A DNA stretch of 63,799 nucleotides, counting the filler, from Chrysochromulina tobinii (taxonomy: Eukaryota), in NCBI GenBank assembly GCA_001275005.1. It is 4 parts of 4 records of this genome, joined end to end, with 100 filler letters (N's around TTAATTAATTAA, not from the genome) between each part and the next. Parts side by side here need not be neighbours in the genome. Positions count along the whole stretch, not along the records: positions 27,453 to 42,723 come from JWZX01000450.1; 3 more parts are not named here. One strand, written 5' to 3'. The translations under genes and the position numbers were made by a program. The notes below the pieces were generated by a model. The model saw only the letters and a list, made by a program, of their open reading frames with translations, did no database searches and was not told the DNA's origin. Shown here piece by piece: positions 4,395 through 56,607 of the stretch (positions are counted from its first letter, which is position 1; every line of letters begins with the position of its first letter).

Positions 4395-7379
4395 ATGCCG
4401 CTCGACGATCTGCCGCCTTACCTGCCCACCACAGGCGACGCGCTCGACGCACTTGACGCCGAAGAGACGATCACGTGCGCGGTGGAGCAGCTCGAACCGC
4501 TGAGCGGCTCCGATGACGCAAGCTTCTGGGATGCCACAGCGGGTGGCGCTCCCGCGCTGCAAGTTTTTCTCGATGGGTACTTGCGATTCGCTGAACGCCG
4601 CTTTGCACTGACTGGTGACGAGTCTGACACCACCGAGGACTCTGCGAGCCTTCGGCGGCTTGTTCTTCGCATCCTGCTCCGTCTCGCAAAGCCACCGGCT
4701 TCCCACATGGCATGGGCTGAGCGGTTCTTCACGGTGCCGCGTCTCATCGACGCATGCGCACTATACGCATTCACTGACAAGCCGGGGTGCGAGCGGCTGG
4801 CTGCTGTCACGATGGGTCCGCAACCGGCCGCCAAGGCAGCCGGGCTGCATGCTTCTCTTGGTGACGCGGCCACAGCCATCTGCCGAGTGTGCGGATTCGA
4901 CTGCGTGCCGGAGGGCGCGGCGGGTGCGGTGCGCACCGCGCTGCTGCCCTCCGCGCTGGACGTTCAGACGGCCGAGGACGCTGCGATAGTAGGCGATTGG
5001 CTCCTCGACGCGACGGGCACTATGCATGCTCTCAGCCTAGTGCTGCCGCCCGCGGCCCTGCACGCCGCCACCAGTGGCCTCTCCAAAAGCTCCACAGCTA
5101 GTGACAGCTCAGTCGGCGCTGGTCGCATGGGTGCCACGTCGCTCGTGCCGCTATGTGGCGTGGGCGGCGTCGTGACGGCCTTGCAGCTCACCGTTGAGGT
5201 TGCCCTGCCGTGGCTGCGTCGCGCCGCCACGCCGGCCATAGGCGTCGTGGCGGGCTCGGCCGTTTCCACCCTTCACGATCGTCTGGTCGCTTGTGGATTG
5301 CACTGTCTCCACGCGGCCGCCAATCTGATCCTTGCGAGCTGTTTCGAGCCCGTTGGCGCCGCCACAGGCGCCGCCTCGGGCGCCGCCTCGGACGCCGTCG
5401 CTGACGTCGCGCTGGAGGGTGGTCGAGGTCATGGCGCTAGAGGGGGCGAGGGTAGCGGGCGCGGCGGTAAGGGTGGCGGCGGCAAGGGCAAGGGCGATGC
5501 CAAAGGCAAGGGCGCCAAGGGCGGCAGCGGCGGCCGCGGCAGCAGCGGCGGCCGCGGCAGCAGCGGCCAGGCCCTCGTGGACCTGGAGGCACTGTCGAGT
5601 GTGCTGCTTCAGCTCTCGGATCCTTGTGAAGCCCTCGAGGAGCTCGAGCCTCTCTACGTGACGGCACAGGTACCCCCTCTGATGACCCTCTGATGACCCT
5701 CTGATGACCCTCTGATGACCCTCTGACGACCCTCTGATGACCCTCTGATGACCCTTTGATGGCCCTCTGAGGACCCTCTGATGGCTCCTCTAACGGGCCT
5801 CTGTTGGCCCCTCTGATGGCCCATGGATCGCCCTTTGGTGATCCTCTGATTGCCCTCTGAGTGCATCTCAATCGAGGCACAGGTGGGCACGGCGCCAGCG
5901 ACCCGGCGCGCCGCGCCTACCTGCCTGGTGGAGGGTAGTGGCGCATTGCTTCAGCAGCTGCTCAAGTTGACTGAGGTAGGCGTTTGCGTGGAGGAGGCGC
6001 TAAGGGGCATGCCAACGGCCACGGCCGACTATCACCGATCGATGGTGGCGAGGGTCGATGAGTCTGCCTGCCGCTCCAAGGGAAAGGGCGGCGGCAAGGG
6101 CGGCGGCAAGGGTGGCGGCGCCTTCGTCGACGTGATCACGGCGGAGGAGAGGGAAGGCGTCGTTATGATCAGCGAGATGCTCCCTGGCTGTGGCGAGGGC
6201 TTCCTCGTCGCAGTGTTTCGTCACTACGGCGGACGGACCGAGACCGCGCTCAATGCGCTCCTCGATGGCTCGTTGCCGCCGTTTCTCGACGCGATGCCAC
6301 GTGATCTCGCCAAGCCGCCGCCGCCGTTGGGCGCCGAGGAGGATGAGGAGCCCACGACGGCGCCATCAGGTCGCTTACCAGTAGCAGGCGGTGTGTCGCT
6401 GATGGGCGTGGCAGCACGGCGCAACGAGACGTTAGCGCAGCGCCGGGCGCGGCAGCAAGAGGCAAAGGTACTCTCTGACCTGAACGCACCAGGACGGCGC
6501 GCGCCTCGGAGCGTGCTCGAGGCCGCGGCAATGGATCCCGCAATGGCGGCCGCACTCGCGGCGGAGGCCGCGGCGACCGACGCCTACAGTAACCGAACCT
6601 TTGGAGGCGCCGAGTTTGGCGCCGGTGGCGGGCCGGGGGGAGCCTCTTATGAGGCGTTACTGCCACGTCGTGAGTCCGCAGCGCTCGCGACGGCGCTCCA
6701 AAATAGGCAGGCGGCGCTCGAGACGGCGCTCTACGAAGATGAGCTCGATGACTCACTCGAGGCGTATAGTGCCGAGGGGCGCACCGCCGGGCCTGCGCTA
6801 CAAGAAGATCAAGAGGAGGCCAGCCAGGCTGTTCGCCGTGGAGGACAAGGAGGCTCGAGCGCCGCCGCGGTGCTCTTCGCCCACGACCCAGCGGAGGACG
6901 CAGGAGGGCGCTCCGGCGAGGCGCCCGGGACGACGCCGTATGGCCGCCAGGCGAGAAGCGCGGCCGGGCCTGGCGCAGCTAGCGGCGGCGACGGCGGCGG
7001 CGCGGCGCCGCTGCCCGGCACGGCGCTCGAGTGGGTGCGCGCCATCGGGCTGGGACAGTACGTGGACGCATTTCGTGCGGCGGGCATCATTCGTCTCGAG
7101 CTCGCCGCCAGATTGAGTGTGGCAGACGTGGCACGCCTCAAGATCAAGACTGAGGCGCACAAGACGAAGCTGATCCAGTCGGCTGCACGGCTGGCGGAGC
7201 GCCTAACACAGCGCGGCCGGCTGCCACCCCCAGGCAGCCGCGTCGCAACAGAGGAGGTCTACGCGGCGGCCGCGCAGCTCCACTACGACGCCGAGACGGG
7301 CGAATTCTGGGACGAGGGTGGCTCTATGGATGCGGCCGTTGGAGACAGCGAGGCAGCACAGGGCGGTGGCAGCGCGGCA

Positions 7380-15307: not shown

Positions 15308-15618
15308 CGAGGTTGAAGCACTGTTTGACACTGTCGCACGACGCCACACCCCAGTGACAGCTAGCGGACGCGCAAGTGAGTGTGTCAGTCCAAGCGTCCC
15401 CGTTTTTGGACAAACGTGGTTTCGGGCGAAGATGCAAACTCGGCTCTTTGACGCAGAGCGAAAATACATGTACCAATGCACCCAGACAGGTACCCTGGTA
15501 TCAGTGGACCGACATCTGCTCGGAAAGCCTCGCGAAGAATCCACAGCGTTAACGCACAGTCACAAACTTCAGAACTTGTCGTCAAAAACTTGGGGCGAGT
15601 GTGTGACCCTTGCCGAAG

Positions 15619-17193
15619 ATGGGTTGCGCCAGCTCCAAGGCTATCGATGGCAAGAAGCCGAAGGTCGACAACGCCGAGAACAGCCTCGCCTCCATCAACA
15701 CCATGGGCGAGAAGTTGTATGCCCGTGGAAAATTTGAACAGGCAGCACAACTGTTTCGGGAGGCACTCACGGCGCGCCGTAGGACGCTCGGCGATCGAGA
15801 CGCTGACACGCTCACCTCGATCAACAATTTGGGCATGGTGTTGCAGGCCCAGGGCAAGCTCGACGAGGCGGCACCGCTGCTCCGTGAGGCGCTTGAGGGG
15901 CGTAGTGCGACTCTTGGCAATTGCCACATAAACACTCTAATGTCCATCAACAATCTGGGGCTGCTGTTGCAGGCCCAAGGCCAGCTCGACGAGGCGGAGC
16001 CAATGCTCCGGGAGGCGCTTGCGGCGAGCCGTGCGACGCTCGGCGATCGGCATCCGAACACGCTCACCTCGATCAACAATCTGGGCATGGTGTTGAAGGC
16101 CCAGGGCAAACTCGACGAGGCAGAGTCTCTAGCCCGAGATGCGCTCGAGGCGCGCCGTGCGACGCTTGGCGATCGGCACCCTAGCACGCTTACCTCCATC
16201 AACGATCTGGGGCTGCTGTTGCAGGCCCAGGGCAATTTCAAAGAGGCGGCGCCGCTGCTCCGGGAGGCGCTGGAGGCGAGCCGTGCGACGCTTGGCGATC
16301 GGCACCCTCACACTCTCACCTCCATGAACAATGTTGGTCTGCTGGTGTATGCCCAGGCCAAGTTCGTCGAGGCGGAGCCGCTGCTCCGGGAGGCGCTCGA
16401 TGGGCGCCGTGCGACGCTCGGTGATCGGCACCCAGATACTCTGAACTCGATCAACAATTTGGCGGGATTAGTCCAGGCCCAGGGCAAGCTCAATGAGGCG
16501 GAGCCGCTGCTCCGGGAGGCGCTCGATGGGCGCCGTGCGACGCTTGGCGATCGGCACCCAGACACTCTGAACTCCATGAACAATCTGGCGGGACTGTTGC
16601 AGGCCCAGGGCAAGCTCGACGAGGCGGAGCCGCTGCTTCGGGAGGCGCTCGATGGGCGCCGTGCGACGCTCGGCGATCGACATCCTGATACACTCATCTC
16701 CATCAATAATGTGGGCATGATGTTGAAGGCCCAGGGCAAGCTCGAAGAGGCGGCGCCGCTGCTCCGGGAGGCGCTCGAGGTGAGTCGTGAGACGCTCGGC
16801 GATCGGCACCCTAATACTCTCACCTCCATCAATAATCTGGGCATGCTGTTAAAGGACCAAGGCAAGCTCGACGAGGCGGAGCCGCTGCTCCGGGAGGCGC
16901 TCGAGGCGAACCGTGCGAGACTCGGCGACAGGCACCTCAATACTCTCACTTCCATCAACAATATTGGCATGCTTTTGAAGGACCAGGGCCAGCTCGAAGA
17001 GGCGGAGCCGCTGCTCCGGGAGGCGCTCGATGGGCGCCGAGAGACGCTCGGCGATCGACACCCTGCCACTCAGAACTCGATCAGCAATCTGGCGGGACTG
17101 TTGCATGCCCAGGGCAAGCTTGAAGAAGCGGCATCTATGCGCAAGAAACGCACGCCCATGAGTACGCCCACGGTGCATGACCACAGTGCATAA
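15619..17193 (+). CDS. Kinesin-light-chain-like TPR protein (about 12 x 42 aa repeats) with N-terminal acylation motif
   Basis: Repeats of LGDRHPxTLxSINNLGxLLxAQGKLDEAEPLLREAL; N-terminus MGCASSK. Confidence 0.92.
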   Translation: MGCASSKAIDGKKPKVDNAENSLASINTMGEKLYARGKFEQAAQLFREALTARRRTLGDRDADTLTSINNLGMVLQAQGKLDEAAPLLREALEGRSATLGNCHINTLMSINNLGLLLQAQGQLDEAEPMLREALAASRATLGDRHPNTLTSINNLGMVLKAQGKLDEAESLARDALEARRATLGDRHPSTLTSINDLGLLLQAQGNFKEAAPLLREALEASRATLGDRHPHTLTSMNNVGLLVYAQAKFVEAEPLLREALDGRRATLGDRHPDTLNSINNLAGLVQAQGKLNEAEPLLREALDGRRATLGDRHPDTLNSMNNLAGLLQAQGKLDEAEPLLREALDGRRATLGDRHPDTLISINNVGMMLKAQGKLEEAAPLLREALEVSRETLGDRHPNTLTSINNLGMLLKDQGKLDEAEPLLREALEANRARLGDRHLNTLTSINNIGMLLKDQGQLEEAEPLLREALDGRRETLGDRHPATQNSISNLAGLLHAQGKLEEAASMRKKRTPMSTPTVHDHSA

Positions 17194-19580: not shown

Positions 19581-22500
19581 ATGGAAAAGCTGTCCAATGG
19601 TTCCCAGCTGGCAGCGCAGCTGCTGGCCGCGCAGCTCGGATCGCTCCTCGGGCCGAACACCTGCGGGCCCGAGGATTTCGAGCGGGTCAAAGCACTCGGG
19701 CAGGGTTCGCACGGCACAACAAGGCTCGTCCGGCGCAAGCACGACGGGCGGCTCGTGTGCAGCAAGCACGTCCCCACGGAGCGCTTCCCCAAGGTGGCCA
19801 GCCAGGTGGTGCGCGAGGTGGAGATTCTCATGATGTGCGACGGTCATCCGCACATCATCGGCTTCATCGGCGCCTTTGTGACCGCCGATGGACTCGACAT
19901 CGTGCAGGAGTTTGCCGAGGGCGGCACGCTACAGCAGCGAATCGACCGACGGCGCGAGCTGCAGGATCCGCTGCTCGAGAGCGAGGTGCTGGATACCTTC
20001 ATCCAGCTGACGGGCGCACTCGAGCATCTGCACTCCCACAAGGTGCTCCATCGTGACCTGAAGCCAGCGAACGTCTTCTTCGACCGTCGCAACCTCGCGC
20101 GCCTAGGCGACTTTGGCATTGCGGCGATCGCAAAGTGAGCGCCCGCGCCCATCCTGGCCACAGCGGCCGTCGTGTTCCACGCCGCACCTCCCGCACCGCA
20201 TCGCGCCGCCGCCGCGTGCCCTCGGCGACGCGCGCGCACTCTCACGTTGGCCCACTGCCACTGATGACCACTGATGACTAATGATGACCACTGATGACCA
20301 CTGATGACCACTGATGACCTCTCTCCCGTTGGCCCACCCTTCCCGGGCTGCGCTCATCGGCTGACGACCGCTGATGACCACTGATGGCCACTGATGACCG
20401 CTGAGGGCCCATTGCCTCATTTGGGTGCGCCACGATCCGCAGCGACAGCCGGCACGCGGAGCCCTCCGTTCTGGGAACACCCCTCTATCTCGCTCCCGAG
20501 CTCATCTCGGGCCAGCCGAGCGGCACTGCCACGGACCTCTGGGCCTTGGGAGTCGTTCTCTACGAGATGGTCGCGCTGCGTCACCCGTTCGCGGCGGAGA
20601 ACCTCGCCGCTCTCGCGATCAAGATCTGTGCGGCGAACTACGACCCCCTCTCGAGCTGCGTGGGCCTGAAGCAGGCCGCGAGTGCTAATGGGGGGGGCAG
20701 TCCAGCTGCGAGCTACTACTCCGCCGAGCTGCTCGCCCTGCCCAGCCGGTGCGCACGATGATGGCCTCTGATGGCCTCTGATGGCCTCTGATGGCCTCTG
20801 ATAGCCTCTGATGGCCTCTGATGGCCTCTGACCCCCCTCCCCCGCCCGCCCGCCCGCACGGACCCCCGGGCCCCCCCGTACCCCTATCTCACTCCCGCTT
20901 CGCCCCGCCCCCCCCCCTCGCCTGACACGTGGCCACGCAGGCTTCTCCAAGTACACCCGGAGCTCAGACCGCCCGCCACGGCGCTCCTCGCCGATCCGCT
21001 GCTCAGGGCACATCGGTGCTTCTTCGCGGAGTCGGCCGAACGTTGCCACGAGAGCGCTCGGAATCTGTGCGAGCTGAGCAACGGGAGATCGGCGGGAGGT
21101 CAGCCCGAGCTCCAATCTCCGACCTCCAGTGCTCCCGCCGATTCCCTGGCGAGTGTCGCCGCCGCTCCCGCCCACACAACGAAGGGGCGGCGCGCGGGCG
21201 GGCACTCGGACGCAGTCTTGGGCGGGCACTTGGACGCCGACGGTGGCGGCGCGAGCGGCTCGGCGGCCGCGGACAATGGCGAGCTACACCGATGGGAAGC
21301 TTCTCTGGCGCTTCGGCTGGCCGAGTACCAGATGGCGTGCATGCATGCGACGCTCCTAGAGGAGGCGGCGGAGGCGCGCTACTCCCGCGATGCACTGCTC
21401 GCTCGGGTCGAGGCAGACTTCGAGGCGGAGCGCCGTGTGGAGCGCCGGCTGCTGCGCGACGAGATGGAGGCGATGGAGCGCTTCGCGTACGAGAGCATGC
21501 GTGAGGTGCTCCTCCGCCATGGGCAGCTCGACGCTCGCGAGGCATCCCTCGTGGCGCGCTCGAGCGCCATCTTGGGCGCGGTCGGCGCGCCGACGGACGC
21601 CGAACGCGCCGTCGCCGCCGCTGCTGCTGGAGGGTTGCTGTACGTGCCGCGACGAGGACGAGAGACGACAGGAGAGCCAGGGACAGCGGTCGATGCGGAG
21701 GTGTCGGTGCCATGGGCGAGCATCTCATCGAGCATCTCAATCCTTGCGCAGCCTGCACGGCACACGCCCTCGCGTCTGACTCCCTCGCCTTCGGAGTCTC
21801 TCCCTTCCAAAGATGGATCCGTCGGTCTCCCTTCCAAAGATGGATCCGTCGACCGGGAGAATGGCGTCGCGTCGCCCAGTCCCGCCCTGCGTGCCGCTTC
21901 GACCGCTCTGCACGACGCCACGGCCGCCGCCGCCACGCATGCCGCCACACATAACGCCCTGCCTGCCGCCGGGACCAGCGTGCCCCCCATCGTGGGTGGC
22001 ATTCCGGGCTGGGCGGAGGCGATCCGCGAGCTCGCAGGGCGAGATTCGACGGAGCCGCGCGCGCACTCGTGCGAGGTGGGCGCGGACGAGGAGCCGCGGG
22101 CCTCGAGCGACCGAGGAGGTTCGAGTAAGCTCGAGGAGCTCAAGCCGCTGGAGCTGCTGCGGTCTCTGCGAGAGGCGGAGGAGATGCTGCATGCTCGCGA
22201 GCTCCAGGTGCATGCGCTCAAGCAGATGAAGAAGCGCGAGGAGCAGATTAAGCTTATCTCGCGGCACGTGCGCTCCATTGCGACGCGTGCCTTCGAGGGA
22301 TGGCGTCGCGCGCTGCTCCACTCGAGGGCTGAACGCGCTCTCGCCTCCAAGGATGAGCAGATCGCGCAGCTCAGCGCGAGGTTGCGTCGGATGGCCGCCG
22401 CCATCACCGACGGAGAGGATAGGAACACTGCCCTCGCGGCCGCCGCCGAGGTGCTCTCGCTCATCATGCACGACGGTACGATGGGATCGCCGGTGGAGCT

Positions 22501-23920
22501 GGCGGAGGTGGGCGGCGTCGCCGACGAGCGCAGCCGCAAGGTGGGCAGCGCCACTAAGGCCAGCAGCTCTTCGTATCAGCATGCCTCGTCCAAGCCGCCA
22601 CTACGGCGCAACTCAAGTGGCCACGTGGCGAGCCCACTCGGCGAGGGACTGACCCTTTTTGAACGGGGAGGCCATGGCGGCCACTTTGGAGCCGGTGGCT
22701 CTCGCGAAGGCGGCCCTGGTTCCACGTGCTTCGGTGAGAATGGGCGTGAGGCAGCGCGGGAGGCGAACGGGCCCGCCGCGGCCGAGCAGCGCTCACGCAG
22801 CCTGGGCAAGCAGCGATCGCGCGAGTTGCAGCTTCAGGCGGATAGCGAGCAGGGGGCGCGCTCGCCCGGCGGCCTGTACGAGCGGGGGCTCAAGCAACGC
22901 CAGAAGCGTGAGGCCGCCATTTCGCGCCGGAGGCGCGAGCGAGAGGCGGCCGAGATTGCGAACTGCACCTTCAAACCTTTGACTCAGACGGCCAGCGATG
23001 CGCCGGGGCGTGAAGGCACTCGTGAACGGCTCAGGGGCGACACCAGCTCGCCACTGCCTGGGGGCGAGGGCGGCAAGGGCCCTCGGGGCGGCGGCAACAA
23101 CATGCGTGTGGAGAAGGGATTGGAGATCGAGCCTCCGGCACATGGCGTGACCGGTAGAAGAAACGGGCTGAACTCCCCCCTTGCACACACGCACATCGAG
23201 GCCGCAGAGCATAGCATGCACGGCTCTTCCAGCGGCATCTGGGGTGCGCAGCTCGACGACTCTCATCGAACGCTGATGACCACTGATGACCACTGATGAC
23301 CACTGATGACCACTGATGACCACTGATTGCTTCCCTCATCAGGTGGGCAGCTCGACGGCGATGGCGCCGATGGCCTTTCATCGGCCGAGCAGCATCAGTA
23401 CCCTTCGCAGCCGCTGCCACCGAGCCCGAGTGCACTCGTCGAGAGTAACCGCATGCCTCTTCACACGATGGACTCGACGCGTGGCACGGCGCAATCACTG
23501 ATTATGTCCACCATCATGTCCGCCCTCCCCAAGGCTCTCGATTCGTATCGAGAGCGGCGGCGCACCACGAGCACGTCTGGCGCGGCGGCCGGCGTGCCGG
23601 CGGCCGCACCCCCACTTGCTCACTCCGCGTACGCGGCGGCGCTGCGCCCGAGCACGCCCTACCACCGTCCCGACTCACGCGCCGACTCACCAGCCCTCGG
23701 TTCACCCGCACACTATTCGACTGACATCGCGGAGGCCGCCGCGCGCGGCTCGCCCTTCAGCTCTCCTCCCTATTCGTCCACTCTCGGATCGACAGTCTAC
23801 TCGACAGCCTCTGCCGCGGGCGACCTGCCGCGCGCGCGCGAAAAGGTGGACGCGCACGTGCTGCCGCTCGGGGCCGCCGCGTACTCCTCCGACGTCGTCT
23901 CTGAGGATGAGCTGATGTGA
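19581..23920 (+). CDS. NIMA-related (NEK) Ser/Thr kinase with long coiled-coil/low-complexity tail (exons 19581-20134, 20443-20748, 20941-23243, 23343-23920)
   Basis: GQGSHG, HPHII, EFAEGGTL, HRDLKPANVF, LGDFGIA and GTPLYLAPE across spliced exons; three GT-AG introns keep the frame. Confidence 0.85.
20135..20442 (+). repeat. Intron containing 10-bp CTGATGACCA tandem repeats
   Basis: AA|GTGAGC...CCGCAG|C gives IAN-DSRHAEPSVLGTPLY. Confidence 0.85.
20749..20940 (+). repeat. Intron containing 10-bp CTGATGGCCT tandem repeats
   Basis: CG|GTGCGC...ACGCAG|G gives RLLQVHPELRP. Confidence 0.85.
23244..23342 (+). repeat. Intron containing 10-bp CTGATGACCA tandem repeats
   Basis: G|GTGCGC...CTCATCAG|GT; joins ORFs 21218 and 23327 in frame. 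Confidence 0.8.
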
Positions 23921-27352: not shown

Positions 27353-27452
27353 NNNNNNNNNNNNNNNNNNNNNNNNNNNNNNNNNNNNNNNNNNNNTTAA
27401 TTAATTAANNNNNNNNNNNNNNNNNNNNNNNNNNNNNNNNNNNNNNNNNNNN
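27353..27452. other. Artificial contig-joining spacer
   Basis: N run + TTAATTAATTAA (stops in all six frames) + N run. Confidence 0.97.
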
Positions 27453-35814: not shown

Positions 35815-36065
35815 GACTGTGAGACTGAGGGACGCAGGAGAGAAGGTCGGTGTGTGAGAGGCGGAGCAGGAGAGACGGTACCATGGACGGTACATCTCGA
35901 CATGTCATTTCAAACCCAGCGGGTTCGCTTGTGGCTAAGAACGGGTGCGGAGGGTTGTGCTTCTCGGAGCGCCGTGCCGGCGTGCGAGTTCTTTCTTCGG
36001 ACGAGTGTGTCGGTCAACAATCCCCGACCCGAGTGGCCGGACGACCACTGTCCGGCGGGTGGTTC

Positions 36066-39000
36066 ATGCCAAAGGACCCGCCGCAAAGGCCGAAGAAGCC
36101 GGGCGTCAAGTACGATCTCACTACATGCGCGTGCCTGCTCTCATGCTTCGACTTCCAGCAGCGTGGCTTTGTGGACCGCGACGACTGGAAGCGCGGCACG
36201 GAGATGATGCAGCTCTCAGAGATGGGTGAGGACGAGGGTCTGTGGGCCAAGGTGCTCGCCACCTACGGTGGTGAGATCGAGGGCTGTGTGGCGATCGCCC
36301 GGCTGCAGGACGTGGTACCGATGGATCCACGCATCTCGCTGATGATGCGAGCAATGGTAGCCTCGGTCGCGACTGTCGAGGAACGGCTGGCGCGGCAGGC
36401 GCGGCGCACTGCCGACCAGGGCGCGAGCCGCGCTAATCGCATCATCCTCAACATGCGCCGCAAGATCATCGAACCGGTATACCACGCATGGGTCGAGCTC
36501 GTCTCCTCTAAGAAGCGGATAGGCCAGCGCGCCGCGAAGGCCGCATTCAATGGCTCGCTCGGCCGAGCATGGCGCCAATGGAGCAGCGTGGCCGAGGCGC
36601 TCGCGGAGACTCGGCAGCGGCTGCGTCGATTCGGCGCGCGCTTCGTCCAGCAGGGTCTCGGCCGCGCATGGAACGCGTGGCTCGCGGTGGCCGAGCAGCG
36701 GGCGCGCATGCAAGCGATCGGCCGGCGAATGCGCATCCAGGGCCTGACGCGGGCCTTCAACGCGTGGGTCGAGAAGGTCGGGGAGGGCGCCGCGAAACAG
36801 GCGCAGATGCGCAAGGCCCTCGGGCGGCTCGTGTACCGAGAGCTCATCGGCTGCTGGGAGAAATGGACGGGCGTGGCGGCCGCAGCACGCCGTAAGGCAA
36901 CGCAGCTGCGGAAAGTCGCGCGCCGTTTCGGCCATGCGAGGGAGGGCGCCGCCTTCAACAGCTGGCTCGCGGTCCTGGCGGAGAACCGGCTGATGCGGAA
37001 GGTGCTACGGCGCGCGCTGCACGCGGGAGTCGGGCGCGCCTTTGGCCGCTGGTACGAGTGCGTCGAGGAACGCATTCGGCTGCGCGAGCTCGCGATGCGT
37101 ATCGGCCGGCGGATGATGAACCGAGTGCAGGCGGCCACCTTCGATTCGTGGTACGAGTGCATCCAGGTGTCCATTGAGAAGCGCGAGGCGACGCTGCGCA
37201 AGGCGATCGTGCAGATCCACTACAAGTGGGTCGCCATGTGCTTCGGCGCGTGGTCCGGCCTGAGCCAAGGGGTTACCGACCGCCGCTCGAAGGCCCTCGG
37301 CGGCGCGCTTGGACGGATGCGCATGCGCGCAGCCGCGCTGTGCTTCGAGGCGTGGGCCGAGTCGTACCGGCGCGCGGGTGCGCTGCGGGCCAAGTACGCG
37401 ACGCGCTTCGTAGCCGCAGGGCTTGGGGCCGCCTACCGCACATGGGCCGAGACGTCGCGCGAGCTCAAGCGGCTCAAGTCCCGGCTCAAGAAGATTGCGA
37501 TCCGTATGGCGCGGCGCGTCGAAGTGCTCGTGCTGACCGAGTGGCACGCGTTCGTCAAGGAAGCGCACGGGTACATGCGCGTCGCGCTCGCTCGCTGGGT
37601 CAACGGAGAGCTCAATGTCGCCTTCCTGCGCTGGCACGAGCACGCCTCCGGTGCAAGTCGCATGCGGCGCCTCTTGCGCAAGTCGCTCGGTCGTTACGCG
37701 AACGCGCTGCTCAGCAAGTGCTTCGTTGCGTGGGTGGGCATGGCGGTCGCCGAGGTGTCGCGGCGTGAGACGCTGACGCGCAGCGCCCTAACCCTCCTCT
37801 CTGGCAAGCGCGAGCTGCTGCTCAAGAACCGCTTCGTCCACTGGCACGACCTCGTGCGCGGGGTCAAGGAGCGCCGTAACGGGCTGCTGCGCAAGGCGAT
37901 CCTGCGGCTGCGCAATCAGCAGCTCCTCAGTGGCTGGAACCTGTGGATGGAGCACCACGAGGCGTGCCGGGGGATGCGCAGAGCGGCGATCGCGTGGAGG
38001 CAGGCCGCAGCGGCCCGAGCCTTCCGATCGTGGGTACACAAGGCTGAGAGTGCGCGCCGGCTGCGCCAGCTCGGTACGGCCGTGCTTGCCCGCTGGCGCG
38101 GCGGCGTACTGACCAAGGTGTTCCTGGCCTGGGCCTCTCACATCGGGTCCGAGCGCACGCGGCGCGAGCAGTCGCAGCTCCGCGCGCTCGCCGCCCTCTC
38201 CGGACGTTATGAGATGCTCATGCAGCTGCAGTTCTGCGCCTGGCGCGAATACGCGCGTGCGGCCCACCATCGGCGCTTGGAGCTCGCCACGAAGGTCTTC
38301 AGGCGCTACGCGAACCAGGCCGTGACACGCTGCTTCCTCGCGTGGCAGGCGCTCGCGGCGTCCGCTCGTCAGATGTCCAACGACAAGATGGCGCGCGCAC
38401 TCGCTTTGCTGTCCGACCGCAACGAGCTCTTGCTGCGCGCGGCCTTCGTGGCTCTGCGCCGTGCGATCGCAAAGCAGCAGGACGAGCGGCAGGCGCTCGT
38501 GCAGAAGTCGCTCATGCGCATGAAGTATGGCGTGCTGCATGCCGCCTTCGAGGAGTGGCGCGCGGCTTATCTTGAAGCCAAGCGCAAGCGCGTCGCCGCC
38601 GGTGGTGGTAGCGGCGGCGGTGGCGCCGGCTTCGATCGAGCAGCCAAAGCGGAGCTCGCGGCAGCGCGCGCGGATGCAGCGCACGCGGCGCAGCAAGCGG
38701 CGGAGCAGGCGCGACGCAACGACGAGCTGCAGGCGCGCATCACGCAGCTCGAGGCGCTCGTGCTCGGAATGCTCCCAGTACTCCCTCCAGAGACGCCGCC
38801 GGCTCCGGCGCACGCACCCGTTGCGCCCGAGCCTGTGCCCGAGCCGCTGCCGTGTGTCGACCTCGCACCAATGTTTGCGTCGCTGCGCGGCTTCGGGCAG
38901 GTGATCGGGGCCACCCTTGGCGCAATGCACGGTCTCACGCAGGCAGTGAGTGAGGTTCGTCTGGCCTCGGAGGTCGGCGGGGGCACGGGCAGCACCGGCA

Positions 39001-40232
39001 GCAGACGCGGAGGGAGGTCGTGGGAGCTCTCCGAGGTACCGCCGACAGCGACGGCGGGCGAGGCAGCAGCGTGGGTGTCGAATCGCCTCTCAGTACTCGA
39101 GAGCGAGTTGCATGGGCAGCTGGACAGTGCCCTCCACACGCTGCGCCACTCGGAGCGTACTCTCGAGGATGGGCTACGCAACGTGCGCGTGAGTCAGCTG
39201 GGCACGCTCGAGGTGCCGCTCCACCCGCTCCCCATCGGCTCCGTCGATGCAGCCGCCTCGCACATACTCATGAGCGAGGTGCGCTCACTGCAGACGCAGC
39301 TCGCAACGACGCGCCGCGAGCTTAAGGACGTCATCCGCACCAAGGCGTACCGGTACGAGATGGCCTACATGCGCACCGAGCTCCATTCCTTCCTCTTCGG
39401 CGGTGGCCCTGCGGGTTCCGCCGCCGCCATCGGCGCTTCTGAGCTGATCCACGACACAACCGTCGCGCGACAGGCTCTGCTCGCCGCGGACGAGTCCCGG
39501 GCGCTGTCCCGGGCGCTCTCAAGGGTGGATAGCGAGAGTGTCACGGGGGGGATCGAGGACGAAGCAGCCGCAGGTGGGGACACGTCGAGGAGCTCTCAAC
39601 AAGCGTTGCAGGGAATGCGTGGCATCGAGGAGGAGGAACTCTTGCCGCCGCGCCTCTCGCCACGCGCGAGCAGCCACCAGAGCCACGTGCCTTCACCACG
39701 CCCCTCGCGTCCGGCATCTGCATCGCTCAAGGGGCGGGCCGCTCCCCCTCCGACGCCCACCGCCCGAGACGCCAGCGCCACACAGTTCTTCGAGATGCCG
39801 CCGTACCACTACGACGCCGATCTCGGCGGCGCCGGCTCTGTCGCCGCGCGCTTTGGCATCGGCGTGAGCGGCGCGGCCTCGGCGAGGGAGGGCGGCGCCG
39901 GCTCCGGCTGCCGCTCAGTAGGAGGGCCCGCGCCGCCCACGCGCCCATCACGCCCTCGATCCGCCGTCGTGGGCGTCTCGCCTCGCATGAAGGCCCTCGT
40001 TAGCGGGGAGCCCCTCGGCGCGTACGCAGGCGGCGGCATGCCCATGAGCAGCGTGGCAGCCGACGGCCAGTTCGAACCGGATCCGAGCGATGCGGTCGGT
40101 ATGGCTTGGGCCTCGCGCGGGCACTTTGCCCAACAGCTTGAGCCACGCCAGGTTGTTGCTGGCCGTGGGTCGAACGGGCGCCTCGTCTCTTCGAGGCCGC
40201 CGAGTGCGGGCGTCCGGCCAGCGCCTGCGTAG
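36066..40232 (+). CDS. Sfi1-like repeat (putative centrin-binding) protein with N-terminal EF-hand-like motif
   Basis: About 20 repeats of LxxAF/WxxW spaced roughly 30-40 aa apart; FDFQQRGFVDRDDW near the N-terminus. Confidence 0.7.
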   Translation: MPKDPPQRPKKPGVKYDLTTCACLLSCFDFQQRGFVDRDDWKRGTEMMQLSEMGEDEGLWAKVLATYGGEIEGCVAIARLQDVVPMDPRISLMMRAMVASVATVEERLARQARRTADQGASRANRIILNMRRKIIEPVYHAWVELVSSKKRIGQRAAKAAFNGSLGRAWRQWSSVAEALAETRQRLRRFGARFVQQGLGRAWNAWLAVAEQRARMQAIGRRMRIQGLTRAFNAWVEKVGEGAAKQAQMRKALGRLVYRELIGCWEKWTGVAAAARRKATQLRKVARRFGHAREGAAFNSWLAVLAENRLMRKVLRRALHAGVGRAFGRWYECVEERIRLRELAMRIGRRMMNRVQAATFDSWYECIQVSIEKREATLRKAIVQIHYKWVAMCFGAWSGLSQGVTDRRSKALGGALGRMRMRAAALCFEAWAESYRRAGALRAKYATRFVAAGLGAAYRTWAETSRELKRLKSRLKKIAIRMARRVEVLVLTEWHAFVKEAHGYMRVALARWVNGELNVAFLRWHEHASGASRMRRLLRKSLGRYANALLSKCFVAWVGMAVAEVSRRETLTRSALTLLSGKRELLLKNRFVHWHDLVRGVKERRNGLLRKAILRLRNQQLLSGWNLWMEHHEACRGMRRAAIAWRQAAAARAFRSWVHKAESARRLRQLGTAVLARWRGGVLTKVFLAWASHIGSERTRREQSQLRALAALSGRYEMLMQLQFCAWREYARAAHHRRLELATKVFRRYANQAVTRCFLAWQALAASARQMSNDKMARALALLSDRNELLLRAAFVALRRAIAKQQDERQALVQKSLMRMKYGVLHAAFEEWRAAYLEAKRKRVAAGGGSGGGGAGFDRAAKAELAAARADAAHAAQQAAEQARRNDELQARITQLEALVLGMLPVLPPETPPAPAHAPVAPEPVPEPLPCVDLAPMFASLRGFGQVIGATLGAMHGLTQAVSEVRLASEVGGGTGSTGSRRGGRSWELSEVPPTATAGEAAAWVSNRLSVLESELHGQLDSALHTLRHSERTLEDGLRNVRVSQLGTLEVPLHPLPIGSVDAAASHILMSEVRSLQTQLATTRRELKDVIRTKAYRYEMAYMRTELHSFLFGGGPAGSAAAIGASELIHDTTVARQALLAADESRALSRALSRVDSESVTGGIEDEAAAGGDTSRSSQQALQGMRGIEEEELLPPRLSPRASSHQSHVPSPRPSRPASASLKGRAAPPPTPTARDASATQFFEMPPYHYDADLGGAGSVAARFGIGVSGAASAREGGAGSGCRSVGGPAPPTRPSRPRSAVVGVSPRMKALVSGEPLGAYAGGGMPMSSVAADGQFEPDPSDAVGMAWASRGHFAQQLEPRQVVAGRGSNGRLVSSRPPSAGVRPAPA

Positions 40233-40706
40233 ACGCACGCATGGCTTCCGCTCACTACGACGCTCACTACCTCACATTAGACATCTTGCGAGTGTGCGCA
40301 CACGTATACGATACGCGTCGTCACGTCGTTGCGCCGCATGCTCGACGCGGGACGCGCTTGCCGCGCACTGGCTGGCCCGCACGACCAACCGCACGCCGCG
40401 CCGCGGCCGGGGCCGGCGCTTCTATGGCGGCCAAGGGGCCGCGGGCAGCCACGCTGTGGGGACGCTGCCTCGACCCCGGCCGCAAAAGGCAATACCGCGA
40501 TCGCCGCTCACTACACCGCGACGAGGACTGCGCACCATCGCCGCCGAACCGAACACGCGCGCCACGACCCACGAGCGACGAACAAGTGAAGTAGTAGGAA
40601 GTGGGACCGTCCAACACGGTCCTCCGATACGTACCGTTAAATCTATATAACTTGAATCTCCCCCTCGTCACGCTCACACTAAACCGTCGGTAACTACGAA
40701 CCCGCG

Positions 40707-41813
40707 TCAATTAGCACCGTGCGCGCCGACAGTGGAACTCGAACAAGTGACAGTAGAAAAGACAGTGTTCGCAGCACTGTGCACCGCAGTCGGCATGGCC
40801 ACCACGCGGGAGCCGCCTGTGTCGTCCGTCGGCTGCCTTGCTACAGCGCCTTTATCGTCATGCGGGACGAAGGTGGCGCTCTCAACTTTCAGATTCGAGG
40901 CAGCTGCGGCGGCGCGCACGGCGCTCTCCCTCTCGTATGCGGGCAGCATGCGGTCAAGGATGAGCCTCGCTAGCTTCTCACCACCCTGCGCTGACGGCTC
41001 GACGCGTTGGACATAATCGGCCGAGGTCTTCCCGTCCAGAGCCTCGAAGAGCGGCACGTGCACCACCTGCACGCCCGGGAGGTTAATCTGCGAGGTGGCG
41101 TACTCAAATATTGTACGGATGCAGAGCTGCAGCTTGTCAGGGTCCTTATCGTAGCCGAGCAGCCGCAGAGTGGTGTCGGCCCAGCTGCCGCCGGGGCATT
41201 CATCCAAGTAGTACAGCATGCATACGACGACGACGCGCGGCTTGCGATCGCCGATAAGGCTCTGCACGTACCTCGTCGTCTTGTCACGGAACAGAGACAC
41301 AAAGTGATGCAGCCCAGGCGCTAGCCAAGGCCCGCAGTTGATGAGCGCCTTGGGCAGCGATAGCAACGTCGCAATCGACGCAATCGTAAGGGCTGTTGGT
41401 CTGAGCGCGATGTCGTTGCCGCCACAGCTGACGACGAGCACGTCGGGCTCTCCAATGTGCTCCCTCACAAAGGCATCCTGCGGTAGAAGCTTGCCACCAT
41501 CGCGCAGCCCAAGCGTAGACTCCTCGATCGCGGTGTTCACTGCGACGAGCTTGTCGCCCTCACCGCGCTCAACGAGCACCTTATTCAGGTGGTGTGTCAC
41601 GTCCGGCACAGCCTGTGGCGGCTTGAGGAGCCGCTCATATCCGTTTGTTGCGGGCTCACGCTGCCCACCGAGCCAGTACTTGTTGTCGAGAGTTGAGTCG
41701 CCCACCAAATAAATGACACCGCGACCGTTAGGCAAATGCGCGAGCACAGTTTCCAGGTCGGGCAAGGGATGGCCATGATACTCGCCGTAGTACGAAATAG
41801 CGCTAAGCTTCAT
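40707..41813 (-). CDS. SGNH/GDSL hydrolase-like protein
   Basis: YLVGDSTLD and VSCGGND motifs; DYVQRVEPS. Confidence 0.7.
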   Translation of the reverse strand: MKLSAISYYGEYHGHPLPDLETVLAHLPNGRGVIYLVGDSTLDNKYWLGGQREPATNGYERLLKPPQAVPDVTHHLNKVLVERGEGDKLVAVNTAIEESTLGLRDGGKLLPQDAFVREHIGEPDVLVVSCGGNDIALRPTALTIASIATLLSLPKALINCGPWLAPGLHHFVSLFRDKTTRYVQSLIGDRKPRVVVVCMLYYLDECPGGSWADTTLRLLGYDKDPDKLQLCIRTIFEYATSQINLPGVQVVHVPLFEALDGKTSADYVQRVEPSAQGGEKLARLILDRMLPAYERESAVRAAAAASNLKVESATFVPHDDKGAVARQPTDDTGGSRVVAMPTAVHSAANTVFSTVTCSSSTVGAHGAN

Positions 41814-41867
41814 GTGAGGGCGCGGCGCTCATGGTAGGCCCTACGAGCATTTCGAGAATACTTCGTT

Positions 41868-42595
41868 TGTGAGACGATTAGTTCCTCGACTTTTATTTGT
41901 GAGACGATGGAACTCATGGTTTCGGTTGTGAGACGATTTAGTTGCGTTTGAGAGACGATAGTTGTTCGGTTGCGTTTGTGAGACGTTTTCATTTTTACTG
42001 TTGCAAGTCCAACCGCGTCGTCTCACAACCATCAGTTCGTCGAACTCCATCGTCTCACAAATGCAACAACATCGTCTCACAAACGCAACTAAATCGTCTC
42101 ACAAACGCCAGTTCGTTGAACCGCGTCGTCTCACAACATCGTCTCACAACCGGCAGTTCGTCGAACTCCATCGTCTCACAATAATGCAACTAAATCGTCT
42201 CACAAACGCAACTGAATCGTCTCACATACGCAACTCAATCGTCTCACAACATCGTCTCACAACCGGCAGTTCGTCGAACCCCATCGTCTCACAAATGCAA
42301 CTAAATCGTCTCACAAACGCAACTGAATCGTCTCACATACGCAACTAAATCGTCTCACAACATCGTCTCACAACCGGCACTTCGTCGTCTCACAAATGCA
42401 AGTTCATCGTCTCACAAATGCAACTAAATCGTCTCACAAACGCCAGTTCATCGTCTCACAAACGCTAGTTCGTCGAACTGCATCGTCTCACAGACGCTTG
42501 TTCATCCGAACGCCAGTTCATCGTCTCACAAACGCTAGTTCGTCGAACTGCATCGTCTCACAGACGCTTGTTCATCCGAACTGCATCGTCTCACA
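41868..42595. repeat. Bipolar array of 29 CGTCTCACA boxes (5 reverse, 24 forward)
   Basis: Counted by eye in the sequence; recurring unit lengths of 13, 22 and 32 bp with a ~112 bp higher-order repeat. Confidence 0.92.
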
Positions 42596-42723
42596 GACGC
42601 TAGTTCTTCGTCCGTGCGCGCATTCTGGACGCCGAGGGCGCCAATTCGGCCTTCCAGCGGCCTTCCAGCGGCGCCCATTTGGTCTCCAGCGGCTCCCATC
42701 CAGCTGTCCAGGGGCCGTGGTCA

Positions 42724-42823
42724 NNNNNNNNNNNNNNNNNNNNNNNNNNNNNNNNNNNNNNNNNNNNTTAATTAATTAANNNNNNNNNNNNNNNNNNNNN
42801 NNNNNNNNNNNNNNNNNNNNNNN
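42724..42823. other. Artificial contig-joining spacer
   Basis: N run + TTAATTAATTAA + N run. Confidence 0.97.
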
Positions 42824-45713
42824 GGGGGCGGGGGCGGGGGCGGGGGCCCTTCCATAGCTAAACGTGCGCCGATGGCTGACAGCGGGCGCGGCGGCGGACG
42901 TAACGGCCGCATCGGTCGATGCGGCTTTAGTAGGCGGCGCCGGCGCCGGCGCCGGCTTCGGTGGGGGCTTGCCGGCGGCTCCGAGAGCGGCACGGGCGGC
43001 ACTCATCGGGCTGGCGCCCGCCGGAGGTTGTTTCGCCCCCCCCGTTAGTACTGTGGGCGTGGCGGCGGTGTGGGCGGCATCGGCGGCGGTCATCAGCGAG
43101 ACGAGCGCGTCAGTGGAGACCGGCTTGGGCGGCGTGGAGGCCGCAAGCGCGGGTATTCCAAATTTGGCAGTCGCCTCAGCCAGGGCGCGAGAGCTCGCTT
43201 CGTCAAGCGCCTCGAGCAGCGTCTTCTCGACGAGGTGCAGCGCTCTCCGGTGGTCCGCGACGTGATCGGTGAGATTGAGGTCGAACTCGCGATACTTGAT
43301 GATCATCTGCTCCTCCTGACTCGCCTCTGACTTTTCTGTGAGCCACCACTGTCGGAAGGCCCGCGAGGCGTAGATGAGGGAAAGGAAGGGAGCGCAAGGC
43401 TGCTTGGGGGCTTGTCCGATGCCCGGCCGGTGCGCATGCGCCGCCGCGCCGCCAATTTTGGCGCAGACGCCCTCGAGAGCAGCACCCAGACCTTCCTTGA
43501 GCTTCTCCTTGAGCAACGGTGCGTGTGGGGCGACCACCTTATCCCGCTCGCACCGCTTTCGCACATCTTCTTCGAAGTCGAGGAGGAGGGCCCAGGTCGC
43601 CCGTGCGGCGGCATCCGCCGGGTGGACCGAGTCCGACAGGGAGCCCTCCTTAAGGTTGAGGATGCCAGCCAAAAACTCGAGGCAAGCTGCCTGCACGGCC
43701 GCCTCATCGAAGCGTTCCTAAGGACACAGAGGACCGAACTCATCAGTATGGGGCGCTCCGAGAGGCACTCCGAGAGTCCCCTCAGAGAGTCCCTCAGCGA
43801 GTCCCTCAGAGTGGCACTCAGGGAGGCACTCCGAGAGGCTCTCAATGGCACGCCCACCTTGGTGCATAGAGGGCCGAGCTTCCTGATCAGCGCGCCGACT
43901 GGAGGACAGCTCGACGCGAGCTGGCTGACCGAGGTGGGGAAAAAGGGCGACGAGGGCGCCAGACAAGGGCGCAGCTCGGTGCGGTCAAAGTCCGCGATGA
44001 CGATTTCGGTGGAGAGAGCGGCGCCGTCGGCGGCGATGGTCTGCGTCGTGCCCACATGCGTGCCGATCAGATAGGGCGAGGTTGAGTCCGAGATGAGCGT
44101 CTGGGCGTCCGAGGAGGCGAGCAGCGTCGCCGGCAGGTAGGGGATGTACGTGGACGAGAAGATTAGGGGAGCGAGGAGCGCCCGCAGCGCGTTCGACGCG
44201 GGCAAGAGCGTGTCCGGCTCCGACGAGATCAGCAGCACCTGCGAGGCACCATCCGAGGGACTGATGAGGGGCGCCATCCGAGGGGCTGATGAGGGGCGCC
44301 ATCCGAGGGGCTGATGAGGGGCGCCATCCGAGGGGCTGATGAGGGGCGCCATCCGAGGGACCAGATTTGACCAGATTTGGACTCAGCCCGATTCAGAGGT
44401 CTCTCAGCCCGATATGGAATGGGGGCGACCAGAGGAGGGATAGAGGGGGGGGGGGTAGCTCAGGGCAGATGGTGGAAGCCGCGCGGGCGGGATGGCGACC
44501 TTTTGATCCGTGAGGCAGGCGGCGATGAGGTACGCAATCTCGGTCACATTGTAGTCCATCGCCTTGAACAATGGCTCGATGGGCGAGGGGAGCCAAAAGG
44601 GGTTCTCGACGAGCCACTTGAGGTCCTGCTCGCGTTGACGAAGCAGGCCGAAGGTCGTGCGGCAGGCGTGCAGCAGGGCGTCGTGGTGGACGGCGGCCTC
44701 GTCGACGACCTCGTACGTGCGCGTCATCAGGATGAAGTGCTGACTACTGCTCGGGGCCTTGTACACCTTCCCAGCGTCCTTGGCTGCTTGCTCCTTAGCT
44801 GCCTGCTGCCGCTGCAGCGCGTCGGAGAACTTCAGGCCATTGAGAGGCTCGCCGTCAAGCGCGGTAATCTGGTCACCCGGGCGCACCTGACGCTCGGAGG
44901 TCGTTACGGAGGTCATTAGGGAGGTCATTAGGGAGGTCATTCGGGAGGTCATTAGGGAGGTCATTGGGGAGGTCATTAGGGAGGTCATTAGGGAGGTCAT
45001 CAGGGAGGTCATTAGGGAGGTCATTAGGGAGGTCATTAGGGAGGTCATTAGGAAGGTCGTTAGGGAAGACGTTAGGAAGGTCTAACGTTAAGGCAGGACG
45101 TTTGGGGGCGCACCTGGCGCTCCTTCGCGGCCATGCTGCCCGCCTCGACGGACATCACAACGTTGTTCTGCCCCATCACCAGCCCGAGACCATACTGGTT
45201 GCGGCTCACGCGAACCTTCAGCTCTCGCGTCCGCTTGGTGGTGGGCACCTTCGCGTGCTGGACGAGCGGCAGCAGAGACCGAAGCAGCTGCGAGAGCACC
45301 TTGAAGATGGGCCGGCCCGAGATCATGCAGATGGCCACCGGGCGGTGCTTCGGGCCCGAGCCCTTGGTGCTCGACGGGTGTGGCACCAGCACCTGCAGCG
45401 AGACACCGTGCAGCTCGTTGCCTTTCGAGTCGGTTAATGTGAAGGTGAGCTCAGACGGCTCGTGGAGCTTGAGAACGGGCGCGAAGCAAAAGTGCGCGAT
45501 CGAGTCGGGCAGCGAAGCCTCTTTCGGGAAGACAAACACCGGATCGACAGAGAGTGGCAACTGCTGCGGCATGGCGATAACGCTCGCCTGCGACTGTCCC
45601 GGTGGCGGGGCTGCGAACTGGACGATTGGACCATGGAGCAGCCCAAAGGTGAGCGAAAGGAAACCATCCTCGACCTTGTCTGGGTCTACGATTTCCGACG
45701 CTGTTTGCGACAT
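42824..45713 (-). CDS. DENN-domain protein (Rab GEF-like) with inserted PDZ domain; exons 45713-45114, 44886-44500, 44238-43858, 43717-contig end (3' truncated)
   Basis: uDENN IAHFCF..TFTLTDSKGNELHG; PDZ YGLGL..GSMA..VRPGDQITALDG; DENN LTDQK|VLLISS..YIPYLP..PYLIG; three phase-0 GT-AG introns. Confidence 0.85.
43718..43857 (-). repeat. Intron with degenerate ~12-bp CTGAGTGCC/CTGAGGGAC repeats
   Basis: AAG|GTGGGC...CCTTAG|GAA gives LCTK|ERFDE. Confidence 0.75.
44239..44499 (-). repeat. Intron with 25-bp CCCCTCGGATGGCGCCCCTCATCAG repeats
   Basis: AAG|GTCGCC...TCGCAG|GTG gives LTDQK|VLLISS. Confidence 0.75.
44887..45113 (-). repeat. Intron with 12-bp CCTAATGACCTC repeats
   Basis: CAG|GTGCGC...CGTCAG|GTG; removal restores the PDZ domain frame. 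Confidence 0.85.
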
Positions 45714-52144: not shown

Positions 52145-53065
52145 GCCGCCGCCTCATCATTGGAGGGCGCAGAGAGCACATGGGACGTGGCGGCGCTAGG
52201 CGTACCCATCAACCAGGAAGACATGGCCGTCACTCTCCTCGCCTTTTCGTATAACGTCCTTTATGGCCTCGAGTTGATCCTTGGTGAGCCTCTCACCGAA
52301 CCGGACCAGCTGGCGTACCTGCACCTGTGGCGCTATCTCGGGCACCTTCTCGGCCTGCGGGGCGAGTGGAACCCGTGCACGCCGCCACCCGGCGTCGCTC
52401 CCATCGCGTACGCCAAGGCTTTCTTTGAGAGCATCATCGTGCATCAGCTGCATCCAAACGAGCTGTCGATACGAGTGGCACACCACATGCTGCGGGCACC
52501 CGCCGCTGCACGGCGCGCCCGTCGCGCGGCCGCGCCGTGCGCTATGCCCGTCAGCGGCGGCGATGCCAAGGGCGCTGGTACGGTGCTGCTCTGCGATGAT
52601 CACGCCTTGCATAAGGCACCGAGCCTGAGGACCGACCTCGCCGAAGCGATCGCTTTCACGCACAACGCGCAGCTCACGCGCCTCCTTGTGGGCGACGCGC
52701 TCGGTGACGCGCTGCAGCTCCCGTTCGACCCTGCCGCGCGGCGCGCCGCGCGCCGCCGGCTTCGCTTCTTACGCCTGTACGCATGGGCATCCGAGAGCTG
52801 GTTGATTGGCGGCGCCATCGAGCGGCTCCATCGGTGTGTGCTCCGAACCGTTCACCAGAACTGCCTCTGATGAGCTCACCTACTAATGACCTACTGATGA
52901 CCTACTGATGACCTACTAATGACCTACTGATGACCTCTCTCACCAGAATTGCCTCTGATGACCTCTCTGAGTGCCTCCGTCATCAGGTTTGCGCTTCGAG
53001 CCATCCAATGGGCAGAGGGGCCGCAGCTGTTCGTGATGAAGCCGGGAGGCCGCTGCCCAGTCTAA
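51380..53065 (+). CDS. MpaB / rubber-oxygenase-like (DUF2236) heme oxygenase domain protein (exons 51380-52833, 52987-53065)
   Basis: RRLFET, RVRILHAKVR, GVPINQEDM..TLLAFS and HLWRYLGHLLG. Confidence 0.85.
52834..52986 (+). repeat. Intron with 11-bp CTGATGACCTA repeats
   Basis: CG|GTGTGT...CATCAG|G gives RLHRFALRAIQW...*. Confidence 0.75.
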
Positions 53066-56507: not shown

Positions 56508-56607
56508 NNNNNNNNNNNNNNNNNNNNNNNNNNNNNNNNNNNNNNNNNNNNTTAATTAATTAANNNNNNNNNNNNNNNNNNNNNNNNNNNNNNNNNNNNN
56601 NNNNNNN
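56508..56607. other. Artificial contig-joining spacer
   Basis: N run + TTAATTAATTAA + N run. Confidence 0.97.

Follow-up and report, generated by a model that had tools for sequence, protein, structure and literature searches.

A bipolar array of short boxes in Chrysochromulina tobinii as the probable end of a large Mutator-like transposon with a predicted TET/JBP-like gene

Architecture of the box array

We analysed a 63,799-nt stretch of DNA from Chrysochromulina tobinii (assembly GCA_001275005.1; hereafter the window), in which an array of 9-bp boxes at 41868–42595 lies next to a host gene for an SGNH/GDSL-like protein. The box CGTCTCACA has 28 exact matches in the whole window, every one inside the array, while 0.78 were expected by chance and the maximum over 100 shuffles was 3. 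With the variant box CGTCTCTCA at 41949–41957, the array contains 29 boxes, 5 reverse and 24 forward, as counted in a preliminary description made from the sequence alone. The outer limits given there also hold, but the reverse block ends at 41985 and the forward block starts at 42019 instead of 42029.

The five reverse boxes (41868–41985, minus strand, the variant included) point outward with spacings of 30, 29, 22, and 28, and the 24 forward boxes (42019–42595, plus strand) point inward in tandem units of 13, 22, and 32 bp. The higher-order unit, previously put at about 112 bp, was recovered as 111 bp in 3.1 copies by TRF. At the switch of polarity lies a spacer (41986–42018; similar in L042, L039, L017, L021, and L035), which is AT-richer than the array (39% vs 47% GC) as first described, but measures 33 bp rather than about 40. 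The core spacings of 13, 32, 24, 22, 22, 13, 32, 22, 22, 22, and 13 were reproduced exactly, and the palindrome AGTTCG-N-CGAACT has 4 copies, in four of the six 32-bp units. The proposed helical phasing is seen between neighbouring boxes (R 0.83 at 10.5 bp) but not across the entire array (0.30), and it is not preserved between copies, since sister copies step at 23–25 bp. The CpG observed/expected ratio of the inward block is 1.8 compared with 0.94–1.13, because the box itself contains CpG.

Copies and ends of the element

Other arrays were sought in metagenome contigs by requiring three consecutive boxes, which gave 108 loci; 37 share the terminal ladder of the window, and the remainder were unrelated or set aside. 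The same triplet search in viral contigs gave two loci, both unrelated. Contigs L060 (window 35868–42723) and L090 (41568–42723) match the window at 100%, which argues against a mis-assembly in a single assembly, although both may share its strain.

Every copy begins at one terminus (41854 in the window) with unrelated sequence outside, and summed contig depth rises abruptly at 41839–41919. The terminus opens an 84-bp terminal inverted repeat (TIR; 41854–41937) at the downstream end of the element, which begins with GAGA and contains boxes 1–3; the window end is identical to the far end in L037 over all 84 nt. Two types of end are present among the copies, one in which five outward boxes at fixed offsets precede 9–24 inward boxes, and one with outward boxes alone (11–13 in long copies). 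The five offsets are identical in all 7 ends of the window type, and the inward boxes number 24 in the window and 22, 19, 18, 17, or 9 (truncated) in sister copies. Both ends occur in inverted orientation on two contigs, 11,595 and 13,038 bp apart. A third two-ended contig, whose window-type end is among those 7, is a 479-bp miniature inverted-repeat transposable element (MITE) with 5 and 9 outward boxes and no inward block. The element thus combines long TIRs, identical between ends, with boxes at both ends, the long-TIR and subterminal-repeat pattern by which Mutator-like elements (MULEs) are recognised.

The boxes are more conserved than the linkers, a test set beforehand. In 7 ends whose retrieval was independent of these positions, 1 of 36 columns varies in boxes 2–5, compared with 22 of 73 in the linkers (p = 8e-4, which is optimistic because the ends are related). 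The same comparison over all 19 ends (0/27 vs 29/57) is biased by locus retrieval, and therefore the 7-end count was relied on. Inward boxes are exact in 96 of 106 cases across six ends, while the 22-bp units carry 13 different 13-nt linkers.

A second subfamily (L021, L035, L022, and L024) shares the element ends; tblastn with the transposase and the second open reading frame (ORF2), both described below, found no match in the available parts of the interiors at L021, L022, L024, and L017. The many distinct flanks imply past movement of the element and nothing further. An empty insertion site, suggested as a check in the preliminary description, was not found among the loci examined.

The copy at L017 (~5990–6362) is broken off after 9 inward boxes and followed by unrelated repeat-like sequence, and at L004 (1105–1122) an element end that lies 50 bp from a gene start directly adjoins three GGGTTA repeats of telomere type. 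Other metagenome contigs (L025, L051, and L071) carry unrelated 21-bp tandem arrays built on the same 9-bp core as the box, possibly the ends of other elements.

Coding capacity of the element

In the window, the array is followed by non-coding element interior (42596–42723), common to L042 and L039 and continuing past a fixed 100-bp spacer (42724–42823; N44, a 12-nt six-frame stop linker, and N44). Copies assembled elsewhere have about 11–12 kb more of the element at this position, and there we found the linked transposase ORF that had been proposed as a further check. ORF1 has about 3,000 aa and a MULE-type core. The ordered core motifs of the L061 ORF, at aa ~1295, 1373, 1394–1397, 1468, and 1587–1601, are taken here as the DDE, CxxH, and SWIM-type zinc finger of a Mutator/MULE transposase; the final SWIM ligand is Asp, not His. 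The nearest Atlas clusters are ZSWIM1/MULE (0.91–0.96). A PDB sequence search with the transposase gave nothing significant, and its core has no relative in viral contigs. Further domains predicted within ORF1 are SGNH, WW, OTU, and GNAT-like. Capture of this SGNH domain from the neighbouring host gene was considered and rejected, as the two show no significant similarity (best E 0.54). RNA-run contigs leave the 3′ half of ORF1 and the ORF2 core (X13, X14, and X18) and the array (X13 and X18) uncovered, which is not evidence of silence.

ORF2, whose stop lies ~490 bp inward of the last inward box (L003/L060), is predicted from structural modelling to be a TET/JBP-like Fe(II) dioxygenase. Its predicted double-stranded β-helix fold is nearest to TET/JBP structures; an early model (12 sequences, pLDDT 55.8) had no Foldseek match at E ≤ 0.001, and its top VIA ranks were four TET/JBP members. 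The iron ligands HxD...H are present in 16 of 16 close homologues and, among distant ones, in 73/74, 73/73, and 82/83. The family comprises 137 clusters at 50% identity, which are unannotated and missed by Pfam. Identity to TET2, NgTET1, CMD1, and CcTet (PDB 9hxv, 5cg8, 7cy4, and 7vpn) is 4–12%, a PDB sequence search gave nothing significant, and no relatives were found in viral contigs or prokaryote genomes. An earlier idea that Gly replaces the 2-oxoglutarate-binding Arg was abandoned; distant homologues show Arg, His, or Lys at the last-strand position.

The zinc-ribbon tail of ORF2 (L003:5042–5261) is ~85% like sequence in RNA runs X13, X14, and X18 and DNA run X1, is absent from more distant homologues, and is likely a captured host gene fragment. 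The C-terminal tail differs in the homologue P0012 (616 aa, cluster of 73), where its motif resembles that of a second 2OG-Fe(II) domain. Fusions to SET (E 5e-4) or to a PHD finger (E 0.008), seen in the distant members P0223 and P0198, hint at chromatin targets.

Insertion sites and neighbouring genes

The host SGNH gene (40707–41813, minus strand; 368 aa) matches Pfam Lipase_GDSL_2 weakly (E 0.047), and its protein cluster has 38 members. Its ATG lies 40 bp from the element terminus and, as correctly noted before, 55 bp from the first box; the gene is outside the element. Coverage of the gene by RNA-run contigs extends to 41855, and a contig from a wild polyA run departs from the window sequence at 41835, just before the element. 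A 2,967-bp contig (runs X1 and X2) matches 40531–40619 with 9 differences and then continues into sequence resembling that upstream of the SGNH ATG (~41831–41850), as if one haplotype had neither the gene nor the element.

An ATG-opened frame points away from the element within 250 bp in 11 of 15 flanks, against 49% of random window positions (p = 0.053), a weak hint at insertion near gene starts. Mutator elements typically insert at such places. Among all pairs of 20 ends, four share at least 7 nt; two of these are 10-nt matches between opposite end types, one around the MITE at offsets 0/3 and the other linking L021 with L018, on different contigs, at offsets 4/2. The partner end of the window copy was not found among these 20 ends.

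The genes of the window are eukaryotic (aspartyl protease, DENN, kinase, SET, mitochondrial carrier, and similar). An intronless ORF of 1,460 aa at 35850–40232 (plus strand), with Trp/Arg-rich helical repeats and no Pfam match, is presumably Sfi1-like. A TPR gene at 15610–17193 has 11 repeats of a 126-bp unit, and minisatellites of 10–12 bp, probably intronic, lie at 5675–5860, 20258–20831, 23273–23327, 44896–45082, and 52878–52936. Spacers identical to that at 42724–42823 are found at 27353–27452 and 56508–56607, and gene order across them is not guaranteed.

Discussion

These results indicate that the array is probably the downstream end of a multi-copy DNA transposon of 11.6–13 kb, likely a MULE, and that the boxes likely bind its own transposase. 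The single terminus, the inverted repeat, the confinement of boxes to the ends, the many flanks, and the ORF with a MULE core were observed directly, and they favour the transposase subterminal repeats listed among the preliminary options; binding is proposed by analogy with Muta1. In Muta1, subterminal repeats serve oligomeric binding of the transposase and better excision (PMC5499845). By analogy, the transposase would load on the repeated boxes at both ends, pair the ends, and cut at the GAGA terminus. The working set would be the five outward boxes here and the 11–13 at the other end, while the 24 inward boxes would be a later tandem expansion, probably unnecessary for movement. We propose that they are retained because the box is still bound, and that they are dispensable because the MITE has none. 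Speculatively, the ORF2 enzyme would modify methylated bases within the element, thereby counteracting silencing. It is more speculative that the block-bound transposase also opens chromatin with help from the TET-like enzyme, as might be supposed from AtMu1, where the transposase by itself renders its own TIRs hypomethylated (bioRxiv 10.64898/2026.08.24.746577).

Several points weigh against this interpretation. A direct repeat was found in one of three two-ended contigs (the MITE, 10 bp, offset by 3 nt); the two long ones, including the contig of the window copy, have no target-site direct repeat, and ends paired by private TIR variants still gave no target-site duplications (TSDs), which measure 8–11 bp in MULEs. 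The contig of the window copy differs from other assemblies by two ~730-bp inversions and a ~1-kb deletion, and may therefore be chimeric, joining different copies. The segments inverted in one assembly (L060:2609–3340 and L037:~6600–7320) break ORF1, and an independent contig crosses one inversion breakpoint in the opposite orientation; they reflect either an assembly artefact or a rearranged copy. ORF1 matches no Pfam MULE or Transposase_mut family at E ≤ 10, so the transposase is divergent, and its GNAT and second OTU domains are tentative motif assignments. Pfam Tet_JBP is unmatched in ORF2, in all 12 aligned members, and in all 47 scanned of the 137 relatives. A last-strand residue, presumably equivalent to the 2-oxoglutarate-binding Arg1896 of TET2, is His in 16 of 16 close homologues (distant, n = 88: Arg 58, His 18, and Lys 8), and therefore co-substrate or activity may differ. 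End pairing leaves the inward block, with its opposite polarity and its absence from the MITE, unexplained, and a single Muta1 subterminal repeat is unbound when the terminal motif is missing (PMC5499845). Haptophyte 5-methylcytosine is described as internucleosomal gene-body methylation, not silencing (PMC12344493), which weakens the anti-silencing step.

The inward block in particular invites other explanations. It could be a VANC-like anti-silencing landing pad, at which a protein encoded by the element would recognise the CpG-containing box and recruit the TET-like enzyme together with the OTU/GNAT domains, so that demethylation spreads inward. This is compatible with a transposon end, and we regard it as unlikely though worth considering. 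The block is non-coding, tandemly expanded, and variable between sister copies, like VANC targets (PMC5735166); it is CpG-rich, close to ORF2, and absent from the MITE, and the AtMu1 transposase offers a precedent. On the other hand, both ends build their TIR ladder from the identical box, an indication in favour of the transposase, the elevated CpG follows from the box, and ORF2 has a weak zinc ribbon and no clear sequence-specific DNA-binding domain. The block may instead be a neutral minisatellite that slippage or unequal exchange expanded from a small number of subterminal boxes, with function in the outer ladder alone. The 17–24 copies in differing unit orders at intact ends, the many minisatellites of this genome, and the MITE would suit such an origin, but exact boxes amid diverse linkers, with at least 17 boxes retained in all long copies, make it improbable.

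It is highly improbable that the array belongs to the host, whether as a homotypic enhancer for the SGNH gene, as a replication origin, or as centromere-like DNA, all of which the preliminary description also considered. The short distance to the ATG, the RNA-run contigs reaching the terminus, and the excess of outward frames would agree with a host role. However, the array adjoins unrelated genes at other loci while its sharp terminus stays constant and the element encodes a transposase, the wild polyA contig leaves the window short of the element, and gene-start insertion is typical of Mutator.

A bolder version of the transposon reading seems decidedly unlikely to us: a giant Mutator with a self-targeting chromatin kit, whose transposase polyprotein (deubiquitinase-like, acetyltransferase-like, and WW domains) would dock on an expandable CpG-box array and recruit a TET-like enzyme of an undescribed family, its Arg-to-His co-substrate site writing a non-canonical, CMD1-like base mark. 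If true, it would amount to a VANC-like anti-silencing system, addressed by sequence and equipped with a catalytic eraser of its own. More generally, TET-carrying transposons would gain the Mutator superfamily and a probable haptophyte host, and the unannotated dioxygenase family is brought to light. With its defined 9-bp box, a naturally occurring derivative that lacks the inward block, and candidate proteins encoded together, the element offers a compact test of how a transposon-borne TET locates its own copies.

Comparison with known systems

The array itself is a known kind of structure, an ordinary transposon end; what is probably new is the element behind it, a giant Mutator-like transposon whose TET-like gene belongs to an unnamed family. 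The literature searched describes neither this element nor any TET-bearing Mutator, though the family may be recorded in Repbase or in supplements, and the main text of a MULE survey (PMC6446971) makes no mention of haptophytes, OTU, or dioxygenases. The Muta1–14 MULEs of Aedes aegypti (type 2 foldback; PMC5225508, PMC5499845) are alike in their DDE MULE transposase, in long TIRs composed of a terminal motif and 9–15-bp subterminal repeats, and in asymmetric non-autonomous derivatives. Muta1, however, is 3.2 kb long with a 504-aa transposase and clean 8–9-bp TSDs, whereas the present element has 11.6–13 kb, a ~3,000-aa ORF, a second ORF for a dioxygenase, linkers that are long and variable, and, at one end, an additional block of boxes in opposite polarity.

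TET-bearing DNA transposons have been catalogued in ten fungal lineages, with no MuDR among them (Kojima 2025, PMC12730594). They are likewise cut-and-paste elements with a very divergent TET/JBP-like ORF, and ORF2 is recognisable by structure alone, like their PE type. In contrast, the present element comes from a non-fungal host, and its enzyme is a member of the 137-cluster family with His replacing a family-wide Arg. Chlamydomonas Helitrons and a giant virus reportedly carry TETs too, the viral TET being without an obvious targeting domain (10.64898/2026.10.09.758095). In the VANDAL/VANC system of Arabidopsis, a MULE likewise carries an accessory ORF that acts against silencing, a role that ORF2 would share, and tandem arrays of an 8–9-bp motif evolve fast in its non-coding DNA (PMC5735166); copy-variable arrays of this kind are present here. 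VANC is described as a DNA-binding anti-silencing protein with host co-factors still to be found (PMC5735166), while in the present element the motif doubles as the TIR repeat, and a TET-like catalytic fold is predicted for the accessory ORF. VANDAL TIRs are absent or degenerate (PMC6446971), whereas ours are perfect over 84 bp; the element therefore resembles VANDAL/VANC in its motif arrays but is not a VANDAL.
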